IMG/VR virus record: IMGVR_UViG_649989946_000003
Reading direction: 5' to 3' (one strand)
Source of the DNA: a virus
Taxonomy: Duplodnaviria > Heunggongvirae > Uroviricota > Caudoviricetes
DNA: 35,240 nucleotides
The position numbers and the translations under genes were made by a program. How positions within the stretch are numbered: position 1 is the stretch's first letter; each line of letters opens with the position of its first letter. The notes beneath the pieces were generated by a model. It saw nothing but the letters and a program-made list of their open reading frames with translations, did no database searches and was not told the DNA's origin. This document shows, in pieces, positions 1-34,953 of this stretch.

Positions 1-1050
1 TTAATCGGGGAGCATATCATTAGCTTCGGTATGCTGTGTGGGCATTGTAGATAATGGATTGTAGTGTAGCGCTGTATTAAGGTGATCCGGTGCAAGATGA
101 GCGTAACGCATTGTCATTTTTATATCGTGATGTCCGAGGATTTTTTGCAAAGCAAGGATATTTCCACCCGACATCATGAAGTGCGCCGCAAACGTATGGC
201 GCAGAACGTGTGTCAGTTGACCGCGAGGGAGCACGATAGACGTTTTTTCCATCACGGATAAAAATTGAAAATAGCAGTCTGTGAAGAAATTGAACCCATC
301 AAGCGCCATGATCTCTTCGTAAAGCTCTTTACTGATAGGGATGCTTCTGTTTTTCTTCCCCTTCGTTCTTACAAAGGTAATTCGGTATTTGGTCACCTGT
401 GATCGGGTAAGGTTTATTGCTTCTCGCCAGCGTGCGCCTGTGCTTAAGCATATCTTGACTACCAGTGCCAGAATTGGGTCCTGACGTTTGCAATCAGCCA
501 GCAATTCAACAATCTGCTCATGGGTAAGCCATGCCATCTCTTTTTCTGCGATGGTGAATTTTCGCATGTTCTCCAGTGGGTTCGGATACGACCATTCGCC
601 CAGGCGGGATAGTTCGCTAAAAACACTACTTAGATAGCTTTGCTCCAGGTTAATAGTGACCGGGCTTGCTCCTTTCTTCCATTTCTCGCTGAAGTAGATC
701 TCTCCTGTCAGGCGTTTATCTCGATAGTGGGCAAACATTTTAGAGGTGAGATCGGTTGCAAGGGGATTGCCAAGAGCGTCAACCATCAACAGCAATTTGT
801 CATAAACATGCTGCCCAGCAGTCAGAGATTTACCATGTAGTTTGAACCATAGCTCAACCACGTCTTTCAATGTCCGACGATCCACTGATTCGCCCAGCCA
901 GGGCTTTGCTTCTATTTCCCCCATGGTGTATCGCTCGAAGGCCAGTGCTTCGCCTTTGGTGGCGAATTGTTTACGCACACGACGCCCATTACGTCCGGCG
1001 GGGTAACATTCGCAAAGCCATTTCCCTGTGGTGAGTTTTCGTACTGCCAT
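1..1050 (-). CDS. int: P2-family tyrosine integrase; C-terminal end runs off the window start (no stop in window)
   Basis: ORF 1..1206(-). Likely start is the ATG at 1050 (protein begins MAVRKLTTGKW...GRNGRRVRKQFATKGEALAFERY, matching my recollection of the P2 Int N-terminus), preceded by GGAGGG. C-terminal HxxR...Y region (VLRHTFAAH...MRYAHLAPDHL) is typical of tyrosine recombinases. Confidence 0.9.
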   Translation of the reverse strand: MAVRKLTTGKWLCECYPAGRNGRRVRKQFATKGEALAFERYTMGEIEAKPWLGESVDRRTLKDVVELWFKLHGKSLTAGQHVYDKLLLMVDALGNPLATDLTSKMFAHYRDKRLTGEIYFSEKWKKGASPVTINLEQSYLSSVFSELSRLGEWSYPNPLENMRKFTIAEKEMAWLTHEQIVELLADCKRQDPILALVVKICLSTGARWREAINLTRSQVTKYRITFVRTKGKKNRSIPISKELYEEIMALDGFNFFTDCYFQFLSVMEKTSIVLPRGQLTHVLRHTFAAHFMMSGGNILALQKILGHHDIKMTMRYAHLAPDHLNTALHYNPLSTMPTQHTEANDMLPD

Positions 1051-1238
1051 AAAAAATGCCCTCCAGTAGAGAGCATTTTCACTGTATGTATAACCAGTGT
1101 CAATGTATGAAATCCTACGACCATACATCTCACTGAAGCCATAATTAAGTTGGCTATTCTTTTTGCTATGTGAGCATGTAACTTTTGCGGTTAACCTGCG
1201 GCTCATTTTTATTTTAGGCGCAGATATAAAAGCAAAAG

Positions 1239-1430
1239 TTATCGTGAGTTTTTAGTACAGATTTTTTTGGATTTACTAATAGTTCCATCATTGCAAACGA
1301 ATTTGCCATCTGAGGTACAGTGAGAAACACCTCCCTTTTTCCCTGAACAGGGATAATTTCTAGCATAGGTAGTTAGTGGGTTTAATAACAAAGAACATGA
1401 CAAAACCACAAAAAATACCTTACCAAGCAT
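1239..1430 (-). CDS. small secreted cysteine-rich protein (63 aa), moron candidate between int and cI
   Basis: Strong RBS (GGGAGGAAACT) before the ATG at 1430. N-terminal hydrophobic signal-peptide-like segment ([23 protein letters not shown]), then a 40-aa Lys/Cys-rich mature part with 5 Cys. Locally AT-rich. Confidence 0.5.
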
Positions 1431-1445
1431 AGTTTCCTCCCGGTA

Positions 1446-2015
1446 CTATTTAACATACTTGACTGTTAAACTTATAATTTTACCAATTATTTCAATGTCT
1501 TCTATCTTGCATTCGAAGGCTCTGTTTCCACCCTCGACGAAGATTCTTCCACCGGGTAAACGAGTAATGTCACGGATCGTTATTTCGCCATCAATACTTA
1601 TTACCCATTTACCATCACGTATATCATCAAATTCCTTATCACAAATAAATTCAGAATTATTATCTGTGATTACAAAAAGATTCTTGAATGCCGACGGTAG
1701 AAATTCTCTATCGAAAATATAAAAACCGTCTTCACACAAAGCCCCATCAGATAATACATATTTAGCAACTTCCATAGTATTTGTATTACCTGAAGTTTGC
1801 TTTGAACCATGCCCGGTTGTGAGCCAATTAAGCGAAGTGCCTGTTTCAAGGGCGCACTGGATTACCCATTCTGCTGGGAATGAGTCACGCATGTAGCGTG
1901 TGGCGAGTGTACTTTTAGAGATTCCTAAATGATCGCACAACGCCTGTCGAGTCTTGAATCCATAAGCTTCTACCATGCGCTCTATAGCGCCTCGTCCGCC
2001 TTTCTCCAAATTCAT
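1446..2015 (-). CDS. cI: phage 186-type CI immunity repressor
   Basis: About 189 aa, far longer than P2 C (99 aa) and the size of 186 CI. Transcribed divergently from apl/cII. ATG at 2015 with a GGAG-type RBS; ORF-track start at 2021 is an in-frame GTG. Confidence 0.8.
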   Translation of the reverse strand: MNLEKGGRGAIERMVEAYGFKTRQALCDHLGISKSTLATRYMRDSFPAEWVIQCALETGTSLNWLTTGHGSKQTSGNTNTMEVAKYVLSDGALCEDGFYIFDREFLPSAFKNLFVITDNNSEFICDKEFDDIRDGKWVISIDGEITIRDITRLPGGRIFVEGGNRAFECKIEDIEIIGKIISLTVKYVK

Positions 2016-2039
2016 GGTCACTCCAAGTGAACTTTTGTC

Positions 2040-2068
2040 TTGACGATTTCACTGTGCGATCGTATGTT
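2040..2068 (+). promoter_or_regulatory. candidate rightward early lytic promoter (pR-like) in the cI/apl switch region
   Basis: TTGACG (2040-2045), 17-nt spacer, TATGTT (2063-2068), about 70 nt upstream of apl. Inverted GTGAAC / GTTCAC half-sites (about 2026-2031 and 2075-2080) flank it and could be operators. Confidence 0.4.
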
Positions 2069-2140
2069 TATGGTGTTCACAAAATACAAACGATCCGTAT
2101 TCGTCCTGATTAATCATCATTAAACGAGGAATGTTGCATC

Positions 2141-2362
2141 ATGAGACCTAACATTTCAATCACTCTTACCACGCCTCATGTGACTATTGAACGCTATAGC
2201 GAGCTGACAGGGCTGTCCATCGATACTATCAATGACATGTTGGCTGATGGACGCCTTATCCGTCACCGTTTGCGCAAAGATAAAAAACGCGAAAAAGTGA
2301 TGATCAACATAGCAGCCATGACCGTTGATGCGCTTTCAGAATGCAATCTAAACCTTAATTAG
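2141..2362 (+). CDS. apl: Apl/Cox-like excisionase and lysogeny-switch regulator
   Basis: 73-aa basic protein, first gene of the rightward early operon opposite cI, in the position of 186 apl / P2 cox. Confidence 0.6.
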   Translation: MRPNISITLTTPHVTIERYSELTGLSIDTINDMLADGRLIRHRLRKDKKREKVMINIAAMTVDALSECNLNLN

Positions 2363-2394
2363 TTCGATTCTGAAATACATCAGAGGCATTGACT

Positions 2395-2904
2395 ATGTTT
2401 GATTACCAAGTTTCCAAACATCCACATTTTGATGAAGCCTGTCGTGCATTCGCACTGCGCCACAACCTGGTGCAACTGGCAGAACGTGCAGGCATGAATG
2501 TGCAGATTCTGCGGAACAAGCTGAACCCAGCTCAACCTCATTTATTAACCGCACCAGAAATCTGGTTGCTTACCGATCTGACTGAAGATTCAACGCTAGT
2601 AGATGGTTTTCTGGCTCAGATTCACTGCCTGCCATGTGTACCGATTAATGAGGTGGCAAAAGAGAAACTGCCACATTACGTCATGAGTGCAACCGCAGAG
2701 ATCGGGCGTGTTGCTGCAGGTGCGGTATCTGGCGATGTAAAAACCAGTGCAGGCCGTCGTGATGCTATCAGCAGCATTAACTCTGTAACACGACTGATGG
2801 CGTTGGCTGCTGTTTCATTGCAGTCCCGTTTACAGGCTAACCCTGCGATGGCGAGTGCAGTTGATACCGTGACTGGCCTCGGTGCTTCATTTGGTTTGCT
2901 GTGA
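2395..2904 (+). CDS. cII: 186 CII-like lysogeny establishment regulator
   Basis: 169 aa starting [24 protein letters not shown]..., closely matching my recollection of phage 186 CII (MFDFQVSKHPHYDEACRAF...). RBS AGAGG 7 nt upstream of the ATG at 2395. Confidence 0.85.
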
Positions 2905-7801: not shown

Positions 7802-7971
7802 CAGCAGGGGCGTTGCTGGCGTGAGAACTAGATTCTCGCGTCAGCAAGGTCAACTAAGGATTGAAACAGAAAGCCCTTGAAAACAGTAGCAAGTTGCCTA
7901 TTATCTACGCTGTATTTAATCGATGTCATTGGCTGTAATACCTTAAGTGATATTGAAAGGCGGTGTGGGGA

Positions 7972-9132
7972 ATGGATCTGGCTAAAGTTGAAGAACGCGT
8001 CCGAAGAGTCATAGGGACAATGGAGTCTGCCGAGCTTGATGAATATTTTTGGGGTAAGCGCTCGGGTTTGGGAGACTCATTACCTCCGTATTATCTCGTT
8101 TATTTTCTTTTGGTAGATTTACTGAAATTTAAAAATCGTGGGGTTGATGAGAAGATTTCTTTTTCTATCCCAGTCCGGATTGATGGGACTGTCGTAATTA
8201 TAGAACATCGTAAACTTGGTTTAGATATATTTATCAAGAGTGATGATGATATAGAGCAAGCTAAAACTGTTTTGAGACATATTTGCGCAGGGGTTAAAGC
8301 TGCTACGAATTTTTTTGACTCGCTTGCAGACAATGCAGCAAAGACTTCAAATCTAAATGTTAATAACAATGCTAATTCTCTTTATGATAGGTTTTGCTAT
8401 TTTTTAGAGCTATATAAACAGAAGCTTGATGAAGTTGCTGCTGGCCAAGAGTCTAAACTGGAAGTTGATAGTGAGTTTAAGTCTGATAATTTTTTCAGCC
8501 TGTTACAATCCACTTTTGAACAATCAAATAAGATAATTGAACTCCGAAGAGAGGCTATGTGGTTAGCAACGTCTGCAATTGAGTCATTTTTCAATTGGAC
8601 CGAGCATGTTTTCATTCTTATTGCAATCTTGAAGGGTGAGATAAAAAATGGGAATGATGTGGCTGATAAAGTTGGAAAAGAATGGGGGGAGAAATTCAAA
8701 TTAGCCATTGATATTAACTCTTCCAGTCTAAAATTGTTCTATGATCGTTTACTTATACTCAGAAAACAGGTGCGTAATTTTGTAGCCCATGGCGCCTTCG
8801 GTAAGGATGGGCAAGCATTGGAATTTCACTCAAGTGTAGGGGCTGTGCCACTATTGCTGCCTCATCGAGAAAATAAAGAACGTTTCAAGTTTGGAAATGG
8901 TGTGCATTTTTTGGCACCTGAAGCAATGCAATTAATTAACGATTTTCTTGAAAATTTGTGGCAGGGAAAACTGTCCCCAGCAAAAATTTATATTGAATCT
9001 GGATGTCCTTTAATACTATCTTACGTAACTAATGGAACCTATGCGGAGGCGATGAAATCAGAAAGGAATATGGACTTATTTGTTAATTACTTAACTCGTG
9101 AGATGGATAATGCCGCAAACATGGATTGGTAA
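7972..9132 (+). CDS. AT-rich cargo protein (386 aa) with an HEPN-like Rx4H motif; candidate abortive-infection/defence effector
   Basis: Long ORF of visibly lower GC than the phage core. ATG at 7972 (in-frame GTG at 7963). Motif R-N-F-V-A-H at 8773-8790 (LRKQVRNFVAHG) resembles the HEPN catalytic motif; no Walker A, so not Old-like. Confidence 0.6.
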   Translation: MDLAKVEERVRRVIGTMESAELDEYFWGKRSGLGDSLPPYYLVYFLLVDLLKFKNRGVDEKISFSIPVRIDGTVVIIEHRKLGLDIFIKSDDDIEQAKTVLRHICAGVKAATNFFDSLADNAAKTSNLNVNNNANSLYDRFCYFLELYKQKLDEVAAGQESKLEVDSEFKSDNFFSLLQSTFEQSNKIIELRREAMWLATSAIESFFNWTEHVFILIAILKGEIKNGNDVADKVGKEWGEKFKLAIDINSSSLKLFYDRLLILRKQVRNFVAHGAFGKDGQALEFHSSVGAVPLLLPHRENKERFKFGNGVHFLAPEAMQLINDFLENLWQGKLSPAKIYIESGCPLILSYVTNGTYAEAMKSERNMDLFVNYLTREMDNAANMDW

Positions 9133-9332
9133 ACTCTAGGTGTGGGTTACAAACACACAAAAAATCTTCCTGAGTTAGGTGTTATCCCAACCCAAGGCTG
9201 TGTCAGGAAAACTTCATATGGCGCATGAGATCGCATGATAGTATGACGATCGTTTTCGCTGATGCCAGCCAGAACTGGCGTGCTTTTGCTTATGTCATGC
9301 AGGTGCATGAAAACCACTATATAAAGTGGGCA

Positions 9333-9351
9333 GGCGTGGCGGGGATACGAT
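9333..9351. other. candidate cos site (cohesive-end sequence)
   Basis: GGCGTGGCGGGGATACGAT followed by TGCGCGC, resembling (from memory) the P2 cohesive end GGCGAGGCGGGGAAAGCAC + TGCGCGC. Lies in a GC-richer non-coding block between two AT-rich cargo genes, upstream of Q. Confidence 0.45.
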
Positions 9352-9432
9352 TGCGCGCAGAAGATTATTATTGGTACACTGTCGGTGACTCTCTACGCAG
9401 ATCTTACACATTAATTTCTAATGGGGCATGCT

Positions 9433-10233
9433 ATGATCTTTCTAAGTCATAATCACCGTGACAAAAGGTTTGTAAGTGTTATAGCGGAAAAACTAGCAGA
9501 TGTTTATGGGCGTGATAACGTATTCTACGATTCTTGGTCTATCCAACCCGGAGAGGGTATTATTGACAAGATGAATTTAGGAATGGAGAATGTATCGTTC
9601 TTTTTCTTTTTTGTCACAGAAAATAGTTTGGCAAGTAACATGGTAAAAATGGAATGGCAAAATGCTTTAATTAAGGCATCGTCCGGGAAGTGTAAATTTA
9701 TACCAATACGTTGCCAGAATATATCCTTGCCTGCTCTGCTTACTCAAACGCTATATATTGATCTTTATTCGTATGGGATCGATGTGGCAATAAGACAAAT
9801 TATAGATGTCATTAATCAACAAAATACGTATATTCCTAATCCTGAGAAGTATTCAAACCTCTCCTATGATATTAAGGATGGTGATGGGGGTAAGATAGTG
9901 AAATTATCAGCAATGGATTTTTTAGAACCAATTGCTGATTTTATGATGATTATGGATAATACAATTAAGCATGATGATGTTGTTGTTATGGTCAATGGAG
10001 AAAGCACATTCACTCAGGGGTTTATTGAAAATGCATCTTTAGAAAATGGTATGAAAGTAAGTGGTGCCACTGTTGGCCTAAATCGGGGGTTAACACCAAC
10101 GATGCCAATGTATGTTTCTCTTAGGTTAAAGGATGGTTCACCTTTGAATATATTTGCGGTGCTACATCGAGTAAGTACCGAGCGTTATGCTCCTATACCA
10201 CATAAAGCCGATGATGCCTTTAGAGTAAAATAA
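9433..10233 (+). CDS. TIR-domain protein (266 aa): N-terminal TIR domain plus about 130-aa C-terminal domain of unknown function
   Basis: N-terminal block IFLSHNHRDKRFVS...VFYDSWSIQPGEGI...FFFFFVTENSLASNMVKMEWQNALIKA matches TIR hallmarks, including the conserved Glu in the S..W..E region (codon 9652-9654). AT-rich. ATG at 9433 with a G-rich RBS. Confidence 0.75.
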   Translation: MIFLSHNHRDKRFVSVIAEKLADVYGRDNVFYDSWSIQPGEGIIDKMNLGMENVSFFFFFVTENSLASNMVKMEWQNALIKASSGKCKFIPIRCQNISLPALLTQTLYIDLYSYGIDVAIRQIIDVINQQNTYIPNPEKYSNLSYDIKDGDGGKIVKLSAMDFLEPIADFMMIMDNTIKHDDVVVMVNGESTFTQGFIENASLENGMKVSGATVGLNRGLTPTMPMYVSLRLKDGSPLNIFAVLHRVSTERYAPIPHKADDAFRVK

Positions 10234-24475: not shown

Positions 24476-24531
24476 ATGCAGCGATTACGGCTAACTGGCA
24501 TCATCCCCTATTTTTATTCAGGGAGATGATC

Positions 24532-25097
24532 ATGCTTATTGGCTATGTACGCGTGTCAACAAATGACCAGAACACCGATTTGCAACGTAATGCGCTGAAC
24601 TGCGCGGGATGTGAGCGGATTTTTGAGGACAAAATCAGTGGCACTAAGTCCGACAGACCGGGGCTTAAAAAACTGCTCAGGACACTATTGGCAGGAGACA
24701 CGCTGGTTGTCTGGAAGCTGGACAGGTTGGGGCGCAGTATGCGGCATCTTGTTACGCTGATAGAAGAGTTGCGCCAGCGTGGTGTGAATTTCCGAAGCCT
24801 GACTGACAGTATTGATACCAGTACCCCAATGGGCCGTTTCTTTTTCATGTCATGGGTGCCCTGGCTGAAATGGAACGCGAACTGATAGTTGAACGTACCC
24901 GGGCAGGGCTGGCTGCAGCTCGTGCTAAAGGCAGAGTAGGTGGACGCCGTCCTAAGTTGACCACTGAACAGTGGGCACAGATTGGACGTTTACTCGAGGC
25001 CGGAGAATCAAGACAGCGTATTGCACTGATTTTTGATGTAGGCGTTTCTACCATTTATCGAAAATTTCCGGCAAATAAGAGCAATAAATCTCCCTGA
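24532..25097 (+). pseudogene. pin: Pin/Hin/Gin-family serine DNA invertase, split by a 1-nt frameshift in a T5 run (about 24841-24845)
   Basis: N-terminal part MLIGYVRVSTNDQNTDLQRNAL... stops after ...SIDTSTPMGRFFF; the continuation MGALAEMERELIVERTRAGLAAARAKGR... is in the next frame (ORFs 24526..24885 and 24852..25097). One extra T would restore the GRFFFHVMGALAEME junction recalled from e14 Pin. Confidence 0.8.
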
Positions 25098-32385: not shown

Positions 32386-32464
32386 CGCTGCCGCCATTTT
32401 GTCGCCATCGTTAAAAAACAGTGCTTCTAACCTCATGATTTTAAATAGAATAAATTTTAGGCAA

Positions 32465-32508
32465 CAAAAAACCCATCAACCTTGAACCGAAATGGCGGGG
32501 TTGATGGG
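32465..32508 (-). terminator. rho-independent terminator candidate for ybjL, at or near the prophage/host junction
   Basis: 10-bp stem CCCATCAACC / GGTTGATGGG (32472-32481 / 32499-32508) with a structured loop, followed on the minus strand by a U6 tract. Confidence 0.45.
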
Positions 32509-32620
32509 CTCCACAAAATGGGGACATCAAAGAAAAGCAGTGGCACTAATTAAGACTGATGCCCTGCGGAAAAGTTCTGCGGTTGTGCAAAAAAATTTCA
32601 TTTTCAGGGCAACTTCAGTT

Positions 32621-34306
32621 TTATCCTAATCCTGGCCATACCATGACGATGATTGTCCCTGCCAGCGTCAGCAGGACGTTGGCGATTGCATAGGTGCCCG
32701 CATAGCCCAGCGCCGGGATGTTACTGCGAGCTGTATCACTGATGATCTCCATTGCCGGCGCGCAGGTACGTGCGCCCATCATTGCGCCGAACAACAGCGC
32801 GCGGTTCATTCGCAATACATAAGCACCGAACAAGAAACAGATAACCACGGGCACCAGACTGACAATCAATCCGGCAATCAACATCTGACCGCCAATCGCG
32901 CCCAAGCCGTTATTAATACCGCTACCGGCGCTCAGACCAACGCCTGCCATAAACACCATCAAGCCGAACTCTTTCACCATGCTTAATGCACCCTGCGGAA
33001 TGTAACCGAAGGTCGGGTGGTTAGCACGCATAAAGCCCAGCATAATTCCGGCGAATAACAACCCGGCAGCGTTCCCCATGCCGAAACTGAATGTGCTGAA
33101 CTGGAAGGTGATCATCCCGATCATCAGCCCAATAACAAAGAAGGCGCAAAATGCCAGCAGGTCAGTGACCTGGCTGTGAATCGAGATAAAGCCGATGCGA
33201 TCGGCGATGGTTTTTACGCGACGGGCATCACCGCTGACTTGTAAAACGTCACCTTTGTTAAGCACGACGTTGTCATCTATCGGCATCTCAATCTGGCTAC
33301 GAATGACGCGGTTAAGGAAGCAACCGTGATCGGTCAACTTCAGTTGTGCGAGACGTTTACCTACAGCGTTATGGTTTTTAACGACCACTTCTTCAGTGAC
33401 GATACGCATGTCGAGAAGGTCACGATCGAAAACTTCTTTACCGTTACGGAAGCTGGGATCGAGTCGGGCATGGGCGTCGGGATAGCCTACCAACGCTATT
33501 TCATCGCCCATTTGTAGCACGGCATCACCGTCTGGATTTGCCAGAATCCCGTTACGTCGAATACGTTCAATGTAGCAGCCGGTTTGTCGATAAATACCCA
33601 GTTCACGCAGATTTTTGCCGTCGGTCCAGGCCACCAGCTCCGGGCCGACGCGATAGGCGCGGATCACCGGTAAATAAACCTTACGGTTGGCATCAGTGTC
33701 CAGGCCACGTTCGCGGGCGATTTGCTGGGCGCTGGTCTGTAAGTCCTGATGCTGCAATTTCGGCAAGTAACGCGCACCAACAATCAAACTCACCAGACCG
33801 ATTAAATAGGTTAAGGCATACCCGAGGCTCAGATTATCCAGTGCCAGTGAGAGCTGCCTGCTTTCCATGCCGGAATGACGCAGTGTATCGCCAGCACCGA
33901 CCAGAACCGGTGTCGACGTCATAGAGCCTGCTAACATACCGGCCGTCAGGCCAATATCCCAGCCAAACAGCTTACCTAACCCTAAGGCGATCACCAGCGC
34001 ACTGCCAACCATCACCAGTGCTAACATTAGGTAATTTTTCCCATCGCGAAAAAAAATGGAAAAAAAGTTCGGTCCGGCTTCAACCCCAACACAGAAAATA
34101 AACAGCATAAAGCCAAGATTAAGCGCATCGGTGTTAATGCTGAAATGTTGTTGGCCTAATAACAGCGATACGACTAAAACGCCAATGGAATTACCCAGTT
34201 GGATCGAACCAAGTCGTAACTTTCCGAGACATAGCCCAAGCGCGAGGACCACAAATAATAACAGAATGTAATTCCCATTTAACAATTCGGCGACGTTTAT
34301 ATTCAC
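32621..34306 (-). CDS. ybjL: host putative transporter YbjL (AAE-family permease with internal TrkA-C-like domains)
   Basis: 561-aa membrane protein recognised as E. coli YbjL ([30 protein letters not shown]...). Confidence 0.9.
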
Positions 34307-34575
34307 GGAGGCTAACTTCTTGTTTACTAGTAAGCTGTTGAAAGAAATGGTAATTTACGATAATGTTTTTTACCAGAATTCAGGGCGCAGATTCATTCAG
34401 CGCACCTAAACGATAGTAAAGTAACAATATATTTTACTAGTGTAATCACATTAGGTATCAACGGCTATATGAATTGCGTTGGCCTATATTAGCATGGAAT
34501 GCGAAGCGGCTTTATCTTACTGAACGCCACACTGGCGAAAAATGTGTTCGATAGACGCAGTGTCAGGAGGAACGA

Positions 34576-34953
34576 GTGAAACATAAACAACGTTGGGCGG
34601 GGGCAATCTGCTGTTTTGTCCTCTTCATTGTGGTGTGCCTTTTTCTGGCGACGCACATGAAAGGCGCTTTTCGGGCTGCCGGGCATCCTGAAATCGGCTT
34701 GCTATTTTTCATTCTTCCTGGAGCAGTCGCCAGCTTCTTTTCACAGCGTAGAGAAGTCCTGAAACCTCTTTTTGGCGCAATGCTGGCGGCACCCTGTTCG
34801 ATGCTCATTATGCGGCTGTTTTTTTCACCGACGCGCTCATTCTGGCAAGAGCTGGCATGGTTATTAAGTGCGGTGTTCTGGTGTGCGCTGGGGGCACTGT
34901 GTTTCTTATTTATCAGTAGTTTGTTTAAACCACAGCACAGAAAAAATCAGTAA
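34576..34953 (+). CDS. ybjM: host inner-membrane protein YbjM
   Basis: 125-aa hydrophobic protein between ybjL and grxA, as in E. coli K-12. Confidence 0.8.
   Translation: MKHKQRWAGAICCFVLFIVVCLFLATHMKGAFRAAGHPEIGLLFFILPGAVASFFSQRREVLKPLFGAMLAAPCSMLIMRLFFSPTRSFWQELAWLLSAVFWCALGALCFLFISSLFKPQHRKNQ

Follow-up and report, generated by a model that had tools for sequence, protein, structure and literature searches.

A prophage-type YdcA-family mini-protein, predicted to be periplasmic, is encoded between cI and int of a 186-like prophage

The DNA under study, called the window throughout, is a stretch of 35,240 nucleotides (IMG/VR virus record IMGVR_UViG_649989946_000003) and opens with the lysogeny and early control region of a 186-like (P2-family) prophage. 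Between the genes for the repressor and the integrase, cI and int, lies a 63-codon open reading frame (ORF) that had been taken, in a sequence-only reading, for the gene of a small secreted, cysteine-rich peptide. Its product is predicted to be a Sec-secreted, cysteine- and lysine-rich protein of about 4 kDa and belongs to the YdcA family. We refer to the gene as ydcA. The features of the region are the following:

1..1050, minus strand: int, last in line of the lysogenic operon (downstream of ydcA), encoding a P2/186-type integrase (Pfam Int_N and Phage_integrase), with its start (MAVRKL) at 1050
1051..1079, minus strand: terminator-like hairpin of 12 bp (A-tract, stem, U6), predicted from sequence and fold, which ends at the int ATG
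1140..1246, minus strand: window-specific spacer of 107 bp, with breakpoints set by blastn against the related loci L011, L015 and L010; a 1.3-kb gene for a KAP NTPase is found there in relatives
1239..1430, minus strand: ydcA, a YdcA-family gene of the NF007463 subtype; ATG start and 63 codons plus stop according to the ORF list
1242..1361, minus strand: predicted mature basic domain of 40 amino acids with four invariant cysteines (C-x9-C-x7-C-x11-C)
1362..1430, minus strand: predicted Sec signal peptide (signal peptidase I), residues 1-23, with the predicted cut TYA/RN
1441..1435, minus strand: Shine-Dalgarno sequence GGGAGGA, 5 nt ahead of the ydcA ATG and inside the 15-nt gap that follows cI
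2021..1446, minus strand: cI, encoding a 186-type CI repressor (Pfam Phage_CI_repr, 2.8e-33; Phage_CI_C, 2.7e-27)
2141-2362, plus strand: Cox/Apl-like gene of the early control region
2389-2904, plus strand: cII (Phage_CP76)

The immediate upstream neighbour of ydcA is cI, which is transcribed in the same, lysogenic direction and whose TAG stop codon at 1448..1446 is separated from the ydcA ATG by 15 nt. A low GC content, which had led to the description of the locus as an AT-rich insert, is indeed seen at the ORF (0.35), but it continues on either side, into the spacer ahead of int (0.37) and into the C-terminal half of cI (0.35). Directly 3' of the ydcA stop codon, a stable hairpin is predicted inside the window-specific spacer at about 1179-1241 (RNA fold of 1051-1245, z = -5.9). 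The second hairpin, at 1051..1079, covers the int Shine-Dalgarno sequence GGAGGG and resides in a block that is common to other prophages of the same int type; the int gene of the window shares 91-95% DNA identity with those of L011, L010, L007 and L006. Judged by its features, this hairpin may be a terminator or a translational attenuator that holds Int low in lysogens, and read-through into int may be restricted in this way. A consensus scan for an intrinsic terminator after the ORF on the minus strand yielded none, and the hairpins were seen by folding instead. Rfam returned no RNA family in the ORF region, and no tRNA genes were found in the window. On the plus strand, a sigma-70-like match in 11 of 12 positions (TTAACA-17-TATAAT) is located at 1450-1478, at the cI/ydcA junction, and points into cI in antisense orientation; in DNA this rich in AT, the match may have arisen by chance.

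The ORF is a real gene whose mature core is under strong purifying selection. The exact protein is encoded on at least 1000 contigs, and the cI-YdcA-int segment (window 1000-2100, coverage of at least 80%) is present in 592 of 5426 complete Escherichia coli genomes, with BL21(DE3) among them. When the window is compared with L011, to which the cI-ORF region has 72% DNA identity, the 33 core codons exhibit 22 nucleotide differences, 20 of them synonymous and only two non-synonymous (pS 0.94, pN 0.026). A Klebsiella copy shows a similar pattern of synonymous excess, and in Moraxella, Acinetobacter and Haemophilus phages the core is still about 75% identical. The earlier proposal of a genuine small ORF with a strong ribosome-binding site is thus borne out by the GGGAGGA sequence, by the number of contigs and by the selection on the core. 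A lack of conservation in related prophages had been named as a finding that would speak against it, and conservation was found.

The N-terminus of the protein consists of MLGK, a hydrophobic core of 12 residues (mean Kyte-Doolittle value 2.86) and the segment NPLTTYA/RN, in which the predicted cleavage site is preceded by Thr at position -3 and Ala at position -1. The latter is at least 90% conserved in an alignment of 50 homologues. AlphaFold predicts a helix over residues 4-15, and with its layout of n-, h- and c-regions the N-terminus is in keeping with the signal peptide that had been suspected. Among homologues the signal peptide is free to vary and the mature core hardly changes at all, as would be expected if the protein is secreted. 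Taken together, the sequence features and the conserved alanine fit export into the periplasm, and RefSeq labels the chromosomal homologue 'periplasmic protein'. After cleavage the protein would have a mass of 4.3 kDa, a pI of 9.7, seven lysines, two arginines and a net charge of +7. The length of 40 residues and the richness in lysine are as originally described, whereas the number of cysteines in the mature part has to be corrected from five to four (C28, C38, C46 and C58), as the fifth, C12, is part of the signal peptide and not conserved. For the mature domain AlphaFold proposes a beta-hairpin with a pLDDT of about 80-90.

Cysteine 12 deserves attention because the sequence VVLSC loosely resembles a lipobox, and one homologue is named 'Lipoprotein' by UniRef. 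One could accordingly envisage an outer-membrane lipoprotein processed at Cys12 and acting as an exclusion factor of the Cor, Llp or TrbK type. However, Cys12 lies only 11 residues from the N-terminus, so that the signal would be too short, and it is followed by more hydrophobic residues. It is also absent from most homologues that carry the same mature domain, and the conserved alanine at position -1 fits signal peptidase I. A lipobox calls for an invariant cysteine after a signal of at least 15 residues, and C12 has neither property. The lipoprotein reading was rejected on these grounds and we regard it as extremely improbable.

As far as sequence comparison can tell, the identity of the product as a prophage-type YdcA-family mini-protein, predicted to be periplasmic, is settled. 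The NCBIfam model NF007463 (PRK10040.1-2) covers residues 5-63 with 115.8 bits against a cutoff of 93, and phrog_6000 matches with an E-value of 1.9e-34. Near-identical homologues carry the Pfam domain PF27300 'YdcA', and for many the RefSeq name is 'YdcA family protein'; PF27300 was absent from the Pfam copy that was scanned, in which the ORF had no significant match. A further NCBIfam model, lpg1681, matched weakly (E 0.11). The protein of the window contains the family motifs PCSGxKGG and F[VI]CxDGxxSxSK as well as the C-x9-C-x(6-7)-C-x11-C spacing. Residues C, S, G, GG, C, C, G, S and C are invariant in alignments of 50 sequences and of 84 cores, and exactly four cysteines are present in 167 of the 168 family cores extracted. 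An exhaustive profile search yielded 460 clusters (50% identity) at E <= 0.001. Of two scans of viral contigs, one led only to near-identical E. coli prophages; the other, with the protein of phage HP2 as query, uncovered a wider diversity. The view that no function could be assigned from sequence had overlooked both the membership in the YdcA family and the core paralogue of the host, but it stands in so far as no member of the family has an established function. Because the family is already known, the novelty is modest.

Chromosomal ydcA (b1419, located between rydC and hokB) occurs in 5416 of 5426 complete E. coli genomes, and K-12 YdcA shares 57% identity overall with the prophage protein. 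Such a core gene, annotated as encoding a periplasmic protein, favours the idea that the prophage gene is a host-fitness moron that provides an extra, constitutive copy of a core periplasmic stress protein and acts in envelope, acid or organic-acid tolerance and not on phages. The presence of YdcA on plasmids and chromosomes of many Proteobacteria argues in the same direction, as do the sensitivity of an E. coli W ydcA deletion strain to 300 mM 3-hydroxypropionate (PMC7642389) and the induction of ydcA at pH 5 via YdcI, which is cited in the same article. On the other hand, the phenotype on 3-hydroxypropionate stems from a single study without a mechanism, and the genes that share the slot with ydcA in relatives are defence genes. 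In addition, the prophage type forms a distinct, more basic subfamily: with NF007462, the chromosomal-type equivalog model, it attains only 68.5 bits against a cutoff of 118. A contribution to host fitness appears rather unlikely to us, though it is a serious rival of the reading that we prefer. It should be noted that the literature on E. coli ydcA is sparse and that the name is also borne by unrelated genes in Bacillus, in the gonococcal genetic island and on plasmids.

A structural relative emerged from profile and structure searches. When the family profile was compared with the PDB, the best match was Dis2 (Lpg0823; 7MUC and 7MUD, chain AN) with an E-value of 2.8e-4. With a profile of the mature part only, Dis2 still ranked first (E 6.8e-3), narrowly above LDL-receptor-repeat matches that are compositional. 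Alignment of the YdcA core with Dis2 homologues (P0214, P0215) by hhalign gave probabilities of 87% for lobe 1 and 74% for lobe 2. In a Foldseek search with the AlphaFold model of the mature domain (pLDDT 80), Dis2 took the top two ranks (probability 0.87-0.91, TM 0.59-0.64, 38% identity) and all remaining matches had probabilities of 0.15 or less. The Foldseek E-values are weak (0.2-0.7) for this short domain, and weight was placed on rank, probability and the sequence profiles. In the reverse direction, the YdcA models were the only matches of Dis2 homologues among 18,950 NCBIfam models, and one Dis2 homologue has a precomputed PF27300 match. The similarity between YdcA and Dis2 is probably one of remote homology, with both lobes of Dis2 being YdcA-like.

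Dis2 adjoins the outer membrane in the Dot/Icm core complex, where it contacts DotK, DotC and DotD; it is built of two similar lobes with five disulfides and has been described as specific to Legionellales and without structural relatives (PMC8486379, PMC12716638). YdcA is not mentioned in either article. From the probable homology, YdcA would be expected to contain two disulfides and to lie close to the outer membrane. No genes for a type IV secretion system (T4SS) were found in the window, which contains a 186-like prophage along with rybB, ybjL and ybjM of the host.

Apart from the LDL-receptor repeats, plant proteinase inhibitors (E 0.23-7) were among the PDB matches, and both were discarded as compositional matches of cysteine-rich sequences. 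The very weak similarity to proteinase inhibitors, together with the small, cationic, disulfide-rich and secreted nature of the protein, would fit a toxin-like or antimicrobial peptide, be it bacteriocin- or defensin-like, that the lysogen would release. This had been one of the two functions first considered. Such a role found no support and is very improbable: ydcA has no adjacent immunity gene, dedicated exporter or lysis gene, a Sec signal delivers its protein to the periplasm only, the host carries a core paralogue, the PDB matches in question are not significant and PADLOC gave no match.

The family is by no means restricted to the vicinity of cI. In Moraxella Mcat phages and Acinetobacter Vieuvirus phages the YdcA gene resides in the tail module, in Mu-like contigs it is found between rdgC and gemA, and further copies are present on Acinetobacter plasmids and on the Moraxella bovoculi chromosome. 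On the mobilisable (MOBQ) plasmid pApiMCR53a of Acinetobacter pittii (L182; 3916 bp), a 58-codon YdcA gene at 728-904 is one of only five genes and directly follows a traD-like gene, which is probably the reason for the UniRef name 'conjugal transfer protein'. In Moraxella, homologous proteins of 212-232 amino acids (37% identity, E 3e-35), each having an N-terminal membrane anchor, are encoded after YdcA in Mcat15 (L002, 4126-4764) and on the M. bovoculi chromosome (L017, 4186-4884), and form a lineage-specific two-gene module. No partner gene is conserved across lineages, the neighbours in HP2, Acinetobacter and E. coli being unrelated. A universal two-gene system was rejected for this reason. 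The unverified record of Pseudomonas 'phage Y12', which appears to include host flank, was left out.

Among long family members, the YdcA module is found N-terminal to SNase, Endonuclease_NS (three proteins) and PLD-like nuclease domains (P0097, P0135, P0178, P0172). Other fusions combine it with VasL, DUF4124 or PBCV_basic_adap (the PBCV basic adaptor domain), and some members have the module twice or three times in tandem. The fusions point to a role in targeting, anchoring or polyanion binding and do not decide among the three. One may think of a periplasmic polyanion- or DNA-binding module that sequesters or marks incoming DNA or serves as the partner of a nuclease. In agreement with this idea, the nucleases belong to three unrelated secreted families, and the SNase fusion (P0097; L021, 4001-4669) is encoded among the cargo of a P2-like phage contig. 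Moreover, a separate secreted SNase gene is situated 24 nt upstream of YdcA in the viral contig L118, the gene after YdcA in HP2 encodes a secreted OB-fold (tRNA_anti-like) protein, and the mean net charge of the core is +3.4, with +7 for the protein of the window. However, the nuclease fusions account for just five of the 51 long members, the VasL, DUF4124 and PBCV_basic_adap fusions as well as Dis2 have no link to DNA, and targeting or anchoring explains the fusions equally well. No nuclease gene adjoins ydcA in the window either. We judge a DNA- or polyanion-binding function quite unlikely, though it too is a serious rival.

The position of ydcA is best appreciated by comparison with related phages. 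Phage 186 has no gene between cI and int, which share one base, whereas relatives carry differing genes there; the slot between cI and int is a variable site for accessory cargo that is empty in 186. The notion of accessory cargo in the lysogeny module is thereby confirmed. E. coli Q5, other E. coli and Klebsiella prophages show the order cI, YdcA, KAP NTPase, int, and cI is likewise followed by YdcA in L010, L011-L016, HP2 and 16 HP2-like contigs. The KAP NTPase gene, which starts 11 nt after YdcA in many E. coli and Klebsiella prophages (L011, 4198-5529; L015; L010, 1142-2473), matches the PADLOC defence candidate PDC-S20 with 570 bits and, more weakly, PifA and QatA. Enteropathogenic E. coli (EPEC) E2348/69 (L009) has cI, a second CI-like gene and the KAP NTPase gene in the slot. 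Its homology to the window (1405-2400) ends 25 nt inside the ydcA ORF, which places a cargo-exchange junction within the 5' end of ydcA. The slot holds a 558-aa ATPase of the PD-Lambda-1 type in phage vB_EcoM-813R9 (PADLOC, 400 bits) and a 349-aa protein in Klebsiella phage 4LV2017. In Vibrio phage K139 it is occupied by orf2, with a BRCT domain, and glo, the product of which is annotated in the record as 'periplasmic protein; involved in phage exclusion'. Glo reportedly has exclusion activity. A Yersinia-type viral contig (L143) has the order cI, K139 orf2 homologue (E 3e-42), YdcA, int, such that YdcA takes the position of glo. In HP2 and S2, the final base of the cI stop codon is also the first base of a 60-codon YdcA gene that is unannotated in both, and in the 16 HP2-like contigs YdcA and cI overlap by 1 or 4 nt. 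A minor defence hotspot has been described in the integrase-primase interval of P2-like phages (PMC13586616).

The leftward lysogenic promoter pL that drives the operon is annotated in the records of 186, HP2 and K139, and because of these annotated pL operons we infer that YdcA is produced together with the repressor in lysogens. On the basis of the position of the gene, its neighbours in the slot and the remote structural analogy, our preferred reading, held tentatively and at somewhat less than an even chance, is that of a lysogen-expressed, envelope-acting protein that hinders DNA entry of superinfecting phages. The exclusion factor originally suggested is thus plausible with regard to position, given that Glo, PD-Lambda-1 and PDC-S20 share the slot, while exclusion itself is something we infer.

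The mechanism that we envisage comprises four steps. Firstly, judging by the homologous operons of 186, HP2 and K139, the lysogenic promoter would drive ydcA along with cI, leading to continuous production in lysogens; owing to the hairpin before int, cI-ydcA may be the predominant transcript. Secondly, the protein would be exported, cleaved after Ala23 and oxidized to form two disulfides, by homology to the lobes of Dis2, in which all cysteines are bonded. Thirdly, it could settle on an envelope partner or on the outer membrane, facing the periplasm, as Dis2 does in the Dot/Icm core complex; the YdcA module may do likewise as the N-terminal part of secreted nucleases. In the fourth and weakest step, the envelope would be changed to the benefit of the prophage, most likely such that DNA entry of superinfecting phages is hindered. 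YdcA would then resemble K139 Glo in function without being its homologue, and might mimic or out-compete the core YdcA of the host.

Several points weigh against an exclusion function. YdcA lacks similarity to Glo, so that the case for exclusion is one of position only, and lysogen expression is itself deduced from related phages. No defence-protein model of PADLOC-DB 2.0 matched the YdcA family at E-values up to 10. The presence of chromosomal ydcA in nearly every E. coli is no less compatible with a physiological role than with one in defence. In Moraxella, Acinetobacter and Mu-like phages YdcA sits in other modules with no repressor gene adjacent to it. Finally, Dis2 is dispensable for assembly of the T4SS, and its function is not known (PMC8486379, PMC12716638).

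A more far-reaching version of the exclusion reading would see YdcA as a widespread small adaptor on the periplasm-facing side of the outer membrane, with one lobe of Dis2 as a member. The cI-coupled copy in P2-family phages of Escherichia, Klebsiella, Yersinia and Haemophilus would then represent a new class of superinfection-exclusion factor that is expressed alongside the repressor and blocks the passage of DNA across the envelope, either by occupying a conserved envelope partner or by competing with host YdcA for it. We consider this proposal improbable as a whole. The literature searched contained no description of the coupling of YdcA to cI across P2-family phages, of the replacement of glo by ydcA or of the link to Dis2.

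Several further observations were made elsewhere in the window. Two cargo ORFs at 7963-10233 (plus strand) occupy the gpA-gpQ defence hotspot of P2-like phages. The first encodes a 389-aa protein with no Pfam or PADLOC match, the second a 270-aa TIR-domain protein (TIR_2, 1.3e-22; weak PADLOC matches to TIR-NLR and ThsB); the pair is probably a defence system. A serine recombinase/invertase gene at 24526-24885 (plus strand; Resolvase, 2.9e-38) adjoins an oppositely oriented C-terminal tail-fibre fragment (Gp53-like_C) and a gene for tail-fibre assembly (Caudo_TAP), and the segment 23627-24885 looks like an invertible host-range segment of the Gin/Cin type. The gene for the small RNA RybB is found at 32463-32541 (minus strand; Rfam, 105 bits), followed by ybjL-like (Asp-Al_Ex/TrkA_C) and ybjM genes at 32621-34953. 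Since host genes follow rybB, the right end of the prophage abuts the 3' end of rybB. In relatives, rcdA lies beyond int.

The YdcA gene is among the commonest accessory genes of 186-like prophages; about 11% of complete E. coli genomes have it, that of BL21(DE3) among them. The anti-phage cargo, proven or candidate, in the same slot, the fold of a Dis2 lobe and the repeated fusions to secreted nucleases provide leads that make the family experimentally approachable. Through the match with Dis2, a solved structure would for the first time be available for a relative of YdcA, and Dis2 would for the first time have relatives beyond the Legionellales. Should the protein indeed exclude phages, we would be dealing with an exclusion factor of very small size that is easy to test; should it not, we would still have an example of a prophage copying a core periplasmic protein of its host.

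With K-12 YdcA and the YdcA family at large (PF27300; NF007462, NF007463, NF007464; phrog_6000) the protein of the window shares the layout of a predicted signal peptide followed by a four-cysteine core of about 33 residues, and it differs from K-12 YdcA in belonging to the mobile or prophage subtype NF007463, in being more basic, in its divergent signal peptide and in the location of its gene beside cI in a lysogenic operon. K139 Glo has in common with it the cI-int slot of a P2-family lysogenic operon and a Sec signal peptide, predicted in the case of YdcA, but comprises 137 amino acids and has no sequence similarity to YdcA (BLASTP E 0.16). PD-Lambda-1 and the PDC-S20 KAP NTPase are encoded in the same slot in close relatives, the latter directly after YdcA; they are large cytoplasmic or membrane NTPases, in contrast to the 4-kDa, predicted periplasmic YdcA, which is without a PADLOC model. 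Dis2, an outer membrane cap subunit of the Dot/Icm T4SS in Legionella, consists of two lobes with ten cysteines and is not strongly basic, whereas the protein of the window would form a single lobe with four mature cysteines. Nevertheless, both are small, secreted and disulfide-stabilised, at least by prediction for YdcA, and the lobes of Dis2 align with the YdcA core along the pattern CxxKxGG[IV]xxC...G[KR]hVCN[DN]GxxS.
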